Numbered from the stretch's first letter, positions 3,597 to 45,660 are shown. The stretch is DNA of 47,028 nucleotides from a virus (IMGVR_UViG_2778261425_000003), one strand, 5' to 3'. Translations and numbers: made by a program. Notes: a model not told the origin generated them from the sequence alone.

Positions 3597-3652
3597 TTGA
3601 TTTTAATGGTGCCGATAATAGGAGTCGAACCTACGACCTTCGCATTACGAAT
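3597..3652. repeat. attR: 56-bp direct repeat of the thrW 3' end (55/56 identical to 45575-45630)
   Basis: ttgatttTaatggtgccgataataggagtcgaacctacgaccttcgcattacgaat repeated at 45575-45630; covers the 3' 46 nt of the tRNA plus 10 nt of flank. Confidence 0.85.
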
Positions 3653-3872
3653 CATAAGAATCCGCTTCTAATTCAAAGTATTACCCCATCAACACTGCGC
3701 TCACACGTCCCACCACATCAAAACATGTAAAGCCTTGCAAGCCATTGTGAGGCCTTATGTGTCTCAGTTTTGTCCCACTACGACCTGCACAGAAAATAAG
3801 AAAATAGCGGTGATATCAAACAGTACAGAAGTCTTTTTTCTTTCAAATGGAGAAACTGATTAACCCGTTTAA

Positions 3873-4100
3873 TTGTACTCCTCATGGGTAATCAGCAGTC
3901 CTCAGAGTAATGGAATGGCAGAAAGATTCGTGAAAACGATGAAGGAAGACTACATCGCGTTCATGCCGAAACCGAATGTAAGAACGGCATTGCATAATCT
4001 TGCAGTGGCGATCGAACATTACAATGAAAACCATCCGCACAGTGCGTTGGGTTATCGCTCTCCGCGAGAATATCGACGTCAGCGGGTAACGTTAACTTAA
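3873..4100 (+). pseudogene. IS3-family (IS2-like) transposase C-terminal fragment
   Basis: 75-aa ORF ending ...[30 protein letters not shown]; only the last part of a transposase, no upstream catalytic region or inverted repeat. Confidence 0.6.
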
Positions 4101-4141
4101 GATACACCCCCTGTCTGGAAATAAGGGGGCAAGAACAATGA

Positions 4142-4885
4142 TCAGATTCCCTGGTGAGTAAGAATTTTACTTTCTGAACTCCTCTGAGAGTATTGACTTG
4201 GAGAAACACCAAAATAACGTCTAAATACATAAGTAAAGTATGAGACACTGGCATAACCACAGACCTTAGCTACTTTACTAATAGGATAACAACGAGTGCT
4301 GAGTAAATATTCAGCCATTTGCATCCTCTCATCAAGTATGATCTTACTGAATGATATCCCCTCTTCTTTCAATTTCCTCTTTAGTAAACTTTCGCTGAGA
4401 TATAATCTTGATGATATATCCTTAAGACGCCATGGTGCAGATAAATCCGTATGAATAATCGTTTTAACTTTAGCCCCTGTGCTTTTCAAACATCCAAACA
4501 GAAATACTCCAAATTGTTTTTCAGAAGAAAATGCAGAGAGACATGTAAAAGCAATAGACTCATCAAAAATTTCTATGTATTCAGCACAGTGATTAGCCCA
4601 ACTAATTAATCCTTTAATTAAACTGAAGTTAGCAAAGTTTATTTTTAAATAAGATGGATATTCCCTACAATCAGAAATATCCCTTAAGTTATTAGCTTTC
4701 AAATAGCGACTAATAAACTCAGCGCCAAAATCCGCCACTATCACTCTTTCAGGATATGTCAGGAAAAAATCTCTAGAGCTAGAGTCGACAAGTACAGATG
4801 AACCTCTCTCCAGAAACACACTTTCTTTTCCGAAATAAATATCAAAGGACTCCAAAATCAATATAACTGAACATGTAGTTGCCAT
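4142..4885 (-). CDS. AraC/XylS-family transcriptional regulator (YdeO/AppY/GadX-like), low-GC cargo gene
   Basis: C-terminal double HTH (..SESLLKRKLKEEGISFSKIILDERMQMAEYLL...CGYASVSYFTYVFRRYFGVSP); ATG 4885 with GGTGG RBS, in-frame ATG also at 4894. Confidence 0.75.
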   Translation of the reverse strand: MATTCSVILILESFDIYFGKESVFLERGSSVLVDSSSRDFFLTYPERVIVADFGAEFISRYLKANNLRDISDCREYPSYLKINFANFSLIKGLISWANHCAEYIEIFDESIAFTCLSAFSSEKQFGVFLFGCLKSTGAKVKTIIHTDLSAPWRLKDISSRLYLSESLLKRKLKEEGISFSKIILDERMQMAEYLLSTRCYPISKVAKVCGYASVSYFTYVFRRYFGVSPSQYSQRSSESKILTHQGI

Positions 4886-5469
4886 ATCATCCACCCAATT
4901 TAACTGAAACCAGGATGAAGTATATGCATATAAAGTTCACTTTGCCAAACTTCAGTATAAAAAACCACATAAAAAATAGGGTGTGATAAAAAATACCGTA
5001 ACAATAAAGCAAAGGATTATAAATTCCGTTACAGTTACAAATGATACTCAAGAAACAATTTCTTAGGAAAAACTTATTTACAGCCAATAAGTAAGACACT
5101 TATATGATATCAAGTTTTCATAAGGCATAACTAGGCTAAATAGCTGCGCCTAATACCGCTACACTTTTGCCAGCCCATGTTTGCCTCCGGGTATTGACCC
5201 CTTCTTTACGCAACTTCAGTTCCCACCACCAACTTTGCGGCAGCTTTGTAGGATCAATGTCTAAAAGAATAATGGTGACCGATAAGAAAACGACTGAATA
5301 ACTGCAGATTTTCGCTCAAAACCTTCCTGTCAGATCCATAGCGAATCAAGTGCTGAATGTCACAGTATCGAACAGAAAACAGTGACGATCTAACCCTTCA
5401 AGAATATTCTACGATTGTTCTGTTTAGGAAAAGCAAGGCGGGAAGTCGGGAGATAAGTCATTGATAAAG

Positions 5470-5535
5470 TGGCGGAGAGAGGGGGATTTGAACCCCCGGT
5501 AGAGTTGCCCCTACTCCGGTTTTCGAGACCGGTCC
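5470..5535 (-). other. truncated tRNA-Ser(CGA) 3' fragment (serU-like); att-site relic, not a functional tRNA
   Basis: Reverse complement reads GACCGGTCTCGAAAACCGG (anticodon arm, CGA), long variable arm, GGGGGTTCAAATCCCCC T-arm, CTCTCTCCGCCA; D-arm and 5' acceptor strand absent. Confidence 0.75.
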
Positions 5536-5711
5536 AATCATCAAACGAAACATAAAATTAATTCACATTATGAGGAAAAGTATCTTTTTTGTACTATGTA
5601 AATTCAAAGACTTAGCCTCATTTTCCCGATTGTTTTCTCAACACTACTGGTTGTGAGCCCTTGCAATGTTCATTAATATACGTCTCACAAATAATTCATA
5701 GATATTGCAAA

Positions 5712-43332: not shown

Positions 43333-43348
43333 CAAAGAGGAATTAATC

Positions 43349-43513
43349 ATGAGAGGACTTGCATACAATCCCGGCATTCTTCCGGCAGAAATGATTATTC
43401 GCCAACGCGTAAAGCCAATGCCATCGAGAGAGGAATTGCTTAAAAGAAATTCTTTTCCTTCAGTGAATCAAAACAAATATCTGAATGCGATGTGGCGGAG
43501 TGGGAAGAAATGA
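43349..43513 (+). CDS. small hypothetical protein (54 aa)
   Basis: ATG with AAGAGGAA RBS; [36 protein letters not shown]...; translated by hand. Confidence 0.35.
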
Positions 43514-43875
43514 AACAAATGTCACTAATTGAGATGGATGGTTTTCTGAAAGGTAAATGCATCCCACGAGATTTAAAGGTTAACGAAACAAACGCTGAAT
43601 ACCTGGTGCGTAAATTCGATGCGCTTGAAGCTAAATGTGCAGCACAGGAAAACAAAGTAATACCAGTGTCAACTGAACTGCCACCAGCAAATGAAAGTGT
43701 TTTGTTATTCGATGCTAACGGAGAAGGCTGGCTAATTGGCTGGCGTTCTCTCTGGTACACCTGGGGACAAAAAGAAACCGGAGAATGGCAGTGGACATTT
43801 CAGGTCGGGGACCTTGAAAACGTCAATATCACTCACTGGGCAGTAATGCCAAAAGCACCGGAGGCTGGAGCATAA
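43510..43875 (+). CDS. DUF551-family lambdoid protein
   Basis: C-terminal ...[47 protein letters not shown]; ORF-track start 43492 is GTG, ATG at 43510. Confidence 0.55.
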
Positions 43876-44180
43876 TGACCACTTTTACCGACAAAGAACT
43901 GATTAAAGAAATTAAAGAGCGTATCAGCAGCCTTGACGTGCGAGACGATATTGAGCGCCGTGCTTATGAAATCGCACTCCTATCTCTGGAAGTAGAACCA
44001 GATGAACGCGAAGCTTATGAATTATTCATGGAAAAGCGTTTCGGTGACTTAGTAGATCGTCGGAGAGCAAAAAACGGCGATAACGAATACATGGCATGGG
44101 ATATGACTCTCGGTTGGATCGTCTGGCAGCAACGAGCTGGTATCCATTTTTCAACAATGTCACAGCAAGAGGTGAAATAA
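43875..44180 (+). CDS. hypothetical protein (101 aa)
   Basis: ATG overlaps the upstream stop (TAATG); [43 protein letters not shown]... Confidence 0.5.
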   Translation: MTTFTDKELIKEIKERISSLDVRDDIERRAYEIALLSLEVEPDEREAYELFMEKRFGDLVDRRRAKNGDNEYMAWDMTLGWIVWQQRAGIHFSTMSQQEVK

Positions 44181-44530
44181 TGGAGCCATACAGCCTCACA
44201 CTCGATGAGGCCTGTCATTTTCTCAAGATATCCAGACCGACTGCCATTAACTGGATACGCACAGGGCGTCTTCAGGCAACACGCAAAGATCCCACTAAGA
44301 ATAAATCTCCTTACCTCACAACACGACAAGCCTGCATTGCGGCTCTTCAGTCTCCGCTGCATACTGTCCAGGTGAGCGCGGGTGATGGCATAACAGAGGA
44401 AAGAAAATGTCACTCTTCCGCAGAGGTGAAATATGGTACGCCAGTTTCACATTGCCGAACGGTAAAAGATTTAAACAGTCTCTTGGAACAAAGGACAAAA
44501 GGCAGGCGACAGAACTCCATGACAAGCTAA
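44180..44530 (+). CDS. xis: excisionase (P22 Xis-like)
   Basis: 116 aa from ATG 44180 (AGGTGAAATAATG); HTH region [28 protein letters not shown]; 3' end overlaps int by about 120 nt. Confidence 0.6.
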
Positions 44531-45570
44531 AGGCTGAAGCATGGCGGGTCAGCAAACTTGGTGAAATACCTGATATAACGTTCGAGGAAGCGTGTGTCAG
44601 GTGGCTTGAAGAGAAAGCACATAAAAAATCACTGGACGATGACAAAAGCCGGATCGGATTCTGGCTTCAACATTTCGCAGGAATGCAACTAAGAGACATT
44701 ACTGAATCAAAAATTTATTCAGCAATGCAGAAAATGACAAACCGGCGTCATGAGGAAAACTGGAAACTCAGGGCAGAAGCATGCAGAAAAAAAGGGAAAC
44801 CTGTTCCAGAATACACGCCAAAACCAGCGTCCGTTGCAACGAAGGCTACGCATCTTTCATTTATAAAGGCCCTACTAAGAGCCGCAGAGCGTGAATGGAA
44901 AATGCTGGATAAGGCACCAATTATTAAAGTGCCTCAACCAAAGAATAAACGGATCCGCTGGCTGGAGCCCCATGAAGCACAAAGGCTGATTGATGAATGT
45001 CCGGAGCCATTAAAGTCTGTTGTTGAATTTGCACTGGCAACAGGCTTAAGACGCTCGAACATCATCAACCTTGAATGGCAACAAATAGATATGCAGCGCC
45101 GGGTGGCATGGATAAACCCGGAAGAGAGTAAATCAAACCGCGCAATTGGCGTTGCGCTGAATGATACTGCATGTCGCGTATTGAAAAAACAAATCGGGAA
45201 TCATCACCGTTGGGTATTTGTGTACAAGGAAAGCTGTACCAAACCAGACGGAACGAAAGCGCCAACAGTAAGGAAGATGCGGTATGACGCAAACACAGCC
45301 TGGAAAGCGGCGCTGAGACGGGCTGGTATTGATGATTTCAGATTTCACGACTTGAGACACACCTGGGCAAGTTGGCTGGTTCAAGCCGGAGTCCCGTTGT
45401 CAGTGTTACAGGAAATGGGAGGTTGGGAGTCTATCGAAATGGTTCGTCGATATGCTCACCTTGCACCTAATCACCTTACCGAACACGCACGGCAAATAGA
45501 CTCGATCCTGAACCCATCGGTCCCAAATTTGTCCCAGTCAAAAAATAAGGAAGGTACTAATGATGTGTAA
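44407..45570 (+). CDS. int: tyrosine integrase (lambda/P22 Int family)
   Basis: 387 aa; AGGAAAGAAA RBS; C-terminal catalytic R...HxxR...Y (…[16 protein letters not shown]…VRRYAHL); 3' end 14 nt from the tRNA. Confidence 0.9.
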
Positions 45571-45584
45571 CTTATTGATTTAAA

Positions 45585-45660
45585 TGGTGCCGATAATAGG
45601 AGTCGAACCTACGACCTTCGCATTACGAATGCGCTGCTCTACCAACTGAGCTATATCGGC
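45585..45660 (-). tRNA. thrW: tRNA-Thr (anticodon CGT)
   Basis: 76 nt GCCGATATAGCTCAGTTGGTAGAGCAGCGCATTCGTAATGCGAAGGTCGTAGGTTCGACTCCTATTATCGGCACCA; acceptor stem GCCGATA/TATCGGC, anticodon loop TTCGTAA, T-loop GGTTCGACTCC. Confidence 0.95.

Follow-up and report, generated by a model that had tools for sequence, protein, structure and literature searches.

An Sf-type prophage with a lambda-type early region, in tandem with a CP4-6-family island at the tRNA gene thrW

The tRNA gene thrW is among the most used integration hotspots in Escherichia coli (PMC7545054). When Shigella flexneri was infected with phage SfX and then with SfI, tandem prophages formed at thrW, the later phage lying beside proA-thrW (PMC3306764). 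At the thrW locus of O157:H7 a P4-like element and an SfV-like prophage are also found in tandem. In both cases two elements occupy one tRNA gene and a copy of the att core lies between them. Here we analyse a 47,028-nucleotide stretch of viral origin, IMGVR_UViG_2778261425_000003 (the whole stretch is called the window below), which is the proA-thrW locus of an E. coli chromosome where two integrated elements stand in tandem: a prophage beside the intact thrW and, next to it, a CP4-6-family island. The best explanation, which we hold to be very probably correct, is an Sf-type prophage at intact thrW with the island beyond it. The partner of the prophage thus differs from those in the SfX/SfI lysogen and in O157:H7, being a CP4-6-type island with an unrelated integrase and not an Sf phage or a P4-like satellite. 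The arrangement itself is ordinary and well documented, tandem thrW lysogeny having already been produced in the laboratory (PMC3306764), and current understanding is unchanged by it.

The only tRNA gene in the window, according to both ARAGORN and Rfam, is a tRNA-Thr(CGU) (CGT in DNA) on the minus strand at 45585-45660. It matches K-12 thrW at 76 of 76 positions, exactly where the original prediction had placed a full tRNA-Thr gene, and the Rfam scan of the window found no other RNA family. The chromosomal flank holds proA (45775-47028, minus strand; annotated in relatives) and is 98% identical to the thrW-proA region of K-12. A direct repeat of the 3′ end of thrW is located at 3597-3652, and the near-perfect 56-bp match reported earlier is real: compared with 45575-45630 there is one mismatch in 56 bp (T at 3604, A at 45582), with an exact run of 48 bp (3605-3652 and 45583-45630). 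The tRNA accounts for 46 of the 56 bp (3607-3652 and 45585-45630), a block that starts at the margin of the anticodon loop (tRNA position 31) and extends as far as the CCA end; the remaining 10 bp are situated just beyond the 3′ end of the tRNA. A repeat finder extends the match to 64 nt at 94% identity (3589-3652 and 45567-45630) with a spacing of 41,978 bp. The repeat continues for 10-18 bp past the tRNA because the phage, island and native chromosomal arms all read GTAAC-NNN-TTGATTTWAA. In length it exceeds all other direct repeats of the window by a wide margin, the runner-up having 28 nt at 75%. The 46-nt tRNA part occurs twice when up to three mismatches are allowed, and 100 shuffles gave an expected number of 0.00.

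Read as its reverse complement, this 46-mer agrees at every position with the published att core of SfI, which is common to SfII, SfV, SfX and P22 (PMC3636060). The closest known phages are the serotype-converting SfI and SfII of Shigella flexneri, with SfV and SfIV. The left copy in the window (3607-3652, minus strand) is an exact copy of thrW positions 31-76 and constitutes a hybrid att site containing the displaced 3′ fragment of thrW. Comparison of 3589-3777 with K-12, SfI, SfII and a genome carrying the phage only gave the order island arm, core, phage P′ arm. The P′ arm of attP (3653-3777) is colinear with the attP regions of SfII and SfI on the cargo side. The right copy is the phage-supplied 3′ 46 nt of the intact thrW (45585-45630) and is arranged as phage P arm, core, 5′ part of thrW. 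Among the core copies from all the loci fetched, three downstream arms could be distinguished: the native chromosomal arm (beside yagP), that of the CP4-6 island and the phage P arm. Local BLAST identified 3589-3777 and 43531-45630 as the two sides of one contiguous attP in SfII and SfI. Joining P arm, core and P′ arm in silico gave an attP 98.0% identical to that of SfI and 97.7% to that of SfII over 355 bp without a gap, the attP arms being 98% identical. Joining island arm, core and the 5′ part of thrW gave an attB with 99.8% identity, again gap-free, to 600 bp of the proA-thrW-CP4-6 junction in K-12. The repeats had been proposed as att sites with precise coordinates, delimiting a prophage of roughly 42 kb; the published core, the gap-free attP, the 41,978-bp spacing and the agreement of both predicted excision products with known junctions bear this out. 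The att coordinates are exact to the base, and primer positions for excision assays follow from them. The gene for the tyrosine integrase Int (44407-45570, plus strand, 387 aa; Pfam Phage_integrase) ends 14 bp from the core, reading toward attP, and its product agrees with SfII Int at 385 of 387 residues (99.5%). The excisionase gene xis (44096-44530, plus strand; Pfam HTH_17) encodes a protein identical to SfII Xis at 141 of 144 residues (98%).

On the far side of the left core lies the thrW-proximal end of a CP4-6-family island (1-3606, plus strand), which extends up to the core. Over 3,652 bp (1-3652) it is 99.0% identical to the corresponding end of CP4-6 in K-12, yafY to ykfI, with the same gene order; the suggestion that a CP4-6-like element lies beyond the repeat is therefore sound. 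All of its genes are on the plus strand: a yafY-like lipoprotein gene (to 443, cut by 1 nt at the window edge; Pfam YfjS_YafY), ykfB (466-933), ykfF (1010-1249), the antirestriction gene yafX (1347-1805; Pfam Antirestrict), the RadC/JAB gene ykfG (1821-2297), ykfH (2306-2527), the antitoxin gene yafW (2546-2863) and the toxin gene ykfI (2884-3225), which is followed by the island arm. The annotations are taken from near-identical relatives, with additional Pfam matches where given. Aligned base by base with K-12, 773 bp contained 2 mismatches, and the match ends precisely at 3652/3653. K-12 CP4-6 has the same block and the same arm sequence up to the core, and there the yafY-to-ykfI genes directly adjoin intact thrW, whereas the island in the window meets only the 46-nt fragment. 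A second 46-mer is present at the far end of the K-12 island, beside intF; in the locus studied here the remainder of the island, with intF and the distal att, would fall beyond the window. IntF, the integrase of the island, showed no significant similarity to Int of the phage. The duplication of one and the same part of the tRNA gene is thus the work of two unrelated recombinases, and related integrases are ruled out as an explanation of the common core. In the tandem relatives closest to the window, H1 and 2EC1, no third att copy was found within 45-70 kb, because deletions associated with insertion sequences (IS) removed the distal end of the island. In both genomes intF, the third att and neighbouring chromosomal genes are deleted next to IS elements. 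In relatives with the same island-phage junction (L001, 1-16000, and L002, 1-7200, to the left of the position of the window's edge), the CP4-6-type island holds a heat-resistance locus (clpK, sHSP20, yfdX, kefB-GI and others).

The frequency of each arrangement was determined by searching 5,426 complete E. coli genomes with 600-bp junction probes. The island lies directly at intact thrW, as in K-12, in 368 genomes, many of which are K-12 laboratory derivatives; together with K-12 itself, this agrees with the original prediction that the island genes adjoin thrW where the phage is missing. The phage alone (yagP, core, phage P′ arm, as in MEI4O1-23) was found in 141 genomes, and the tandem junction of the window (island, core, phage P′ arm) in at least 17. 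The last figure is a lower bound because other genomes pair the island with thrW phages that differ in the sequence next to P′. Comparison with related thrW loci thus recovered the island-only, phage-only and tandem states. These data also bear on whether the repeat could be coincidental or an assembly artefact, leaving the region without att bounds. We consider this to have a negligible probability: no point in its support turned up, shuffling produced no chance matches, the sequence is that of the published att core, both in-silico excision products match independent sequences without a gap, and the identical junction occurs in 17 independent complete genomes. A coincidental repeat is ruled out on these grounds.

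Counting one copy of the core, the prophage comprises 41,978 bp (3653-45630), close to the 41,475 bp of SfII. By its gene content it is a temperate phage, a mosaic that belongs to the SfI/SfII/SfV group and whose early region, cI included, is of the lambda type. An HK97-fold head and contractile tail of the SfV type, cos packaging and an Int-Xis-attP set of the P22/Sf type are combined with immunity, replication, nin, Q and lysis genes of the lambda type. The head, contractile-tail and baseplate genes are 97% identical to those of SfI and SfII, and SfI shares the lambda-like early region with a lambda-type cI. In lambda, HK97 and HK106 the genes cI, cro, cII, O, P, ren, nin, Q, S and R are found in the same, lambda, order at about 97-98% nucleotide identity, but the virion genes, int, xis and the att site are not those of lambda. 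The prophage had been described as an intact lambdoid phage. The term lambdoid suits the early region and gene order; the virion does not follow lambda, being a contractile-tail particle of the SfV/SfI type with sheath, tube and Mu/P2-like baseplate genes in place of a lambda-like non-contractile tail. The authors of the SfI study class such contractile-tail phages as lambdoid (PMC3636060). As regards its sequence the prophage is indeed intact, with a complete gene set, both att arms and a cos site; int, xis, cI, O, P, Q and the lysis, terminase, head and tail genes are full length by comparison with PHROGs.

From what is known of the family, the phage tyrosine integrase would have recombined attP with thrW inside the 46-bp identity, between the anticodon loop and the CCA end. 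The copy brought by the phage would now form the 3′ part of the still-perfect thrW, and the original 3′ part would have been moved 42 kb away, still fused to the island. The island most probably came earlier, its own unrelated integrase duplicating the same segment. Since the tRNA is restored by every element that enters, thrW stays available for further integration. Int and Xis together would excise a 41,978-bp circle and restore the thrW-CP4-6 junction of K-12 type, and the lambda-type cI implies, as a proposal, that derepression would be SOS-inducible.

Several points weigh against this account. The arrangement alone fits either order of arrival, and an island entering the distal att of the phage gives the same map. 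The junction running from island through core and P′ arm to a regulator gene of the AraC family is found, at 99.5-99.7% identity, in genomes where the inside of the prophage has decayed or is of another kind. Of the prophage stretches used as queries, less than 80% is covered by any one phage record or complete E. coli genome. Completeness of the sequence is no proof of activity, and excision and induction are predictions made from it.

With respect to order, we favour arrival of the island first and of the phage second, a view argued from precedent and from half-site logic. The precedent of SfX followed by SfI, the only direct experiment, placed the later arrival next to thrW; an island-occupied thrW would be an unchanged target for the phage near the crossover in the anticodon loop; and the distal att of the phage lacks three anticodon-stem bases of the CP4-6 identity block. 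In the opposite order, a CP4-6-type island would have been integrated by its own integrase into the distal att of a resident prophage. All att copies have the same 46-bp core, so that any lysogen offers a second target, and the two orders yield indistinguishable maps. Against this, the CP4-6 identity block in K-12 reaches 3 nt further into the anticodon stem (GCG), where the distal phage att has the P′ arm and would make a poorer target. Genomes with the island alone also outnumber those with the phage alone (368 and 141), though the former include the many K-12 laboratory derivatives. On balance we regard prior arrival of the phage as improbable.

With the island-first integration as our preferred reading, it can further be asked whether integration took place in this lineage. 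The tandem array could have been inherited, or homologous recombination could have brought it in as one block, its interior being remodelled later by exchange with other lambdoid phages. Positions 1-5139 are 99.5-99.7% identical to several genomes in which the prophages then diverge completely, and a cassette of att, IS remnant, AraC regulator and CMoRE (a restriction endonuclease described below) heads both SfV-type myovirus prophages and the prophage of 2EC1, which has a lambda-like fibre. A junction common to genomes with differing interiors may therefore have been inherited and the interior later replaced by recombination. We think such a history possible, if somewhat less than an even chance. 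It concerns history only; the identity of the locus is unaffected, and the original site-specific integration at thrW would still be needed.

The best coverage by phage records is 73% of 3653-28000 and 58% of 28001-45582, and the best by a complete genome is 68% of 22029-47028. None of the 5,426 complete E. coli genomes matches the left 8 kb of the window at 99% or more throughout. In local BLAST the MEI4O1-23 prophage covers 79% of the whole prophage interval; SfI covers only 59% of the prophage and SfII 49%. With all of these values below 80%, this particular mosaic is new although each module is familiar: a new mosaic in a well-known phage group at a well-known hotspot. It is conceivable that the prophage is gene-complete yet cryptic, kept in place by small faults in its arm sites, its promoters or its structural proteins. 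Relatives with the same junction are visibly decayed or altered (H1 has a 10-kb remnant; S1 and 2EC1 have other content), and annotations of MEI4O1-23 and O157:H7 mark the tail-fibre gene as truncated or frameshifted. In the window, however, we found no truncated essential ORF (open reading frame); genes are as long as their counterparts in SfI, SfII or lambda, the tail-fibre ORF is unbroken across its inversion site, Int and Xis differ at only a few residues from the proteins of SfII, an isolated phage, and cos and both att arms are intact. We consider a cryptic prophage unlikely, with perhaps one chance in a few.

The cargo slot beside attP occupies 3653-6485. Where the Shigella phages SfI and SfII carry gtrABC, the prophage has an IS remnant, an AraC-family regulator and CMoRE; domain searches of the slot revealed neither gtr nor acyltransferase, and it lacks the O-antigen modification genes (gtrABC or oac) of serotype-converting phages. 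The IS remnant (3873-4100, plus strand) is a fragment of a transposase integrase core (Pfam rve_3, E = 8e-17), annotated as a partial gene in relatives. The same fragment, missing its N-terminus, is found at this place in all the related thrW prophages examined. The regulator gene (4142-4885, minus strand; Pfam HTH_AraC/HTH_18) is low in G+C and YdeO/GadX-like, YdeO and GadX being the best NCBIfam matches, both below the cut-offs. Its product is identical at 244 of 247 residues to a protein of the O157:H7 thrW prophage and is probably the orthologue of PatE (z0321, OI-8), a regulator of acid resistance and of LEE (the locus of enterocyte effacement). CMoRE (5712-6485, plus strand), a GIY-YIG type IV restriction endonuclease also known as PD-T4-3, matches the PADLOC model PD-T4-3 over its full length (E = 2.7e-140), and likewise the O157:H7 protein in PDB entry 9U75 (E = 3.7e-172). 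The enzyme cuts the DNA of T-even phages, which contains 5-hydroxymethylcytosine or its glucosylated form (PMC12923530). The cargo slot of Sf phages beside attP is thus interchangeable, holding O-antigen genes in Shigella and a regulator with a defence nuclease here; both the cassette and the tail genes have counterparts at the O157:H7 locus. In 2EC1 (L009, 46114-49901) the cassette of att, IS remnant, AraC regulator and CMoRE stands at the head of a prophage whose long tail fibre is of another, lambda-like kind, which suggests that phages with unlike tails pass on the int-attP-cargo end to one another as a module.

Adjacent to the slot, and again setting the prophage apart from SfI and SfII, is a Pin-type serine DNA invertase gene (6543-7100, minus strand; Pfam Resolvase and HTH_7; pinE in relatives) with an e14-like invertible tail-fibre segment (7159-9047). 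The segment is bounded by 20-nt inverted repeats (7159-7178 and 9028-9047, 95% identical) and contains fibre and assembly domains, comprising alternative fibre C-termini (two tips) and two tail-fibre assembly genes. In O157:H7 Z1835 it is reversed, with both flanks colinear. The contractile-tail module (8552-19834, minus strand) is full length throughout by PHROGs and 97.4% identical to SfII and SfI. It includes the tail fibre (8552-9331), baseplate (9335-14338), tape measure (15016-16848) and assembly protein, tail tube (17259-17615), sheath (17615-19111) and terminator. The head and packaging module (19831-27278, minus strand), also full length by PHROGs and including the connectors, contains the HK97-type capsid (21295-22503), protease, portal (23143-24384), large terminase (24578-26311), small terminase (26308-26811) and an HNH gene (26928-27278). 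The 10-mer cos sequence of SfI (PMC3636060), which SfII shares, occurs once in the window, at 26853-26862, between the small terminase and HNH genes as expected.

Over the virion half (9028-27278) the identity with SfI and SfII is 97%, except for one insert of 665 bp (14357-15021, minus strand, G+C content 0.40), located between the tape-measure and DNA-circulation genes. The insert is absent from SfI, SfII and two related prophages (L005 and L008). Its ORF (14394-14924) encodes 176 aa with an N-terminal membrane helix and belongs to phrog_5485, of unassigned function, with no match in Pfam, NCBIfam or PADLOC. A second low-G+C ORF, of 169 aa (27386-27895, minus strand; phrog_18591, function unassigned), lies between the lysis cassette and the HNH and terminase genes. 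In a related prophage this moron slot is occupied by the serum-survival gene iss. The lysis cassette (27962-29257, minus strand; PHROGs) consists of holin (28934-29257), endolysin (28474-28950) and Rz/Rz1 spanin genes.

The lambda-type rightward early and delayed-early genes (29691-36058, minus strand; PHROGs) are Q, ninI to ninB, a methyltransferase gene, ren, P (33793-34494), O (34491-35390), cII (35423-35719) and cro (35858-36058). Lambda, HK97 and HK106 match the early region at about 97% identity, and 42% of 28001-45582 aligns to lambda at 97%. The proteins encoded by Q, ninI-ninB, ren, P, O, cII, cro, cI and N have the same lengths as in lambda. The cI repressor gene (36159-36872, plus strand) encodes a LexA-like protein of 237 aa of the lambda immunity type, as indicated by its translation and by phrog_4; it is 97.7% identical at the nucleotide level to the cI of SfI, which is annotated as lambda-like. 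The translation would differ from lambda CI at only two positions.

Downstream of cI the prophage departs from lambda and from SfI, both in the rexAB slot and in its recombination genes. In the rexA/rexB position are two overlapping ORFs (37157-38202, plus strand; about 100-135 aa and 216 aa) assigned to PHROGs without a function; searches of Pfam, PADLOC, NCBIfam and PDB gave no match for either. By their position directly downstream of a lambda-type cI they are candidate exclusion genes expressed in the lysogen. We also entertain, as a doubtful proposition, a more far-reaching view: that this is an active lambda-immune phage of SfV morphotype of a kind not isolated before, that its cargo exchanged gtr for a PatE-like regulator and an anti-T-even enzyme, and that the rexAB-slot ORFs and the membrane protein in the tail operon provide new exclusion functions expressed by the lysogen. 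The leftward early operon with its small ORFs (38696-44180, plus strand; PHROGs and Pfam) begins with N (38696-39079) and includes an HNH gene (40441-40968) and genes for RecT (41629-42540) and a Mu Gam-like protein (42518-43006), the last two standing in place of the exo, bet and gam of lambda. ORFs of 176, 135, 216, 169 and 156 aa received no assignment from Pfam, PHROGs, NCBIfam, PADLOC or PDB sequences. Among the ORFs of unassigned function scanned against these databases, only CMoRE, the AraC regulator and a protein with nucleotide modification associated domain 5 (Nmad5) could be identified. The gene for the Nmad5 protein (39081-39764, plus strand) directly follows that for the N antiterminator.

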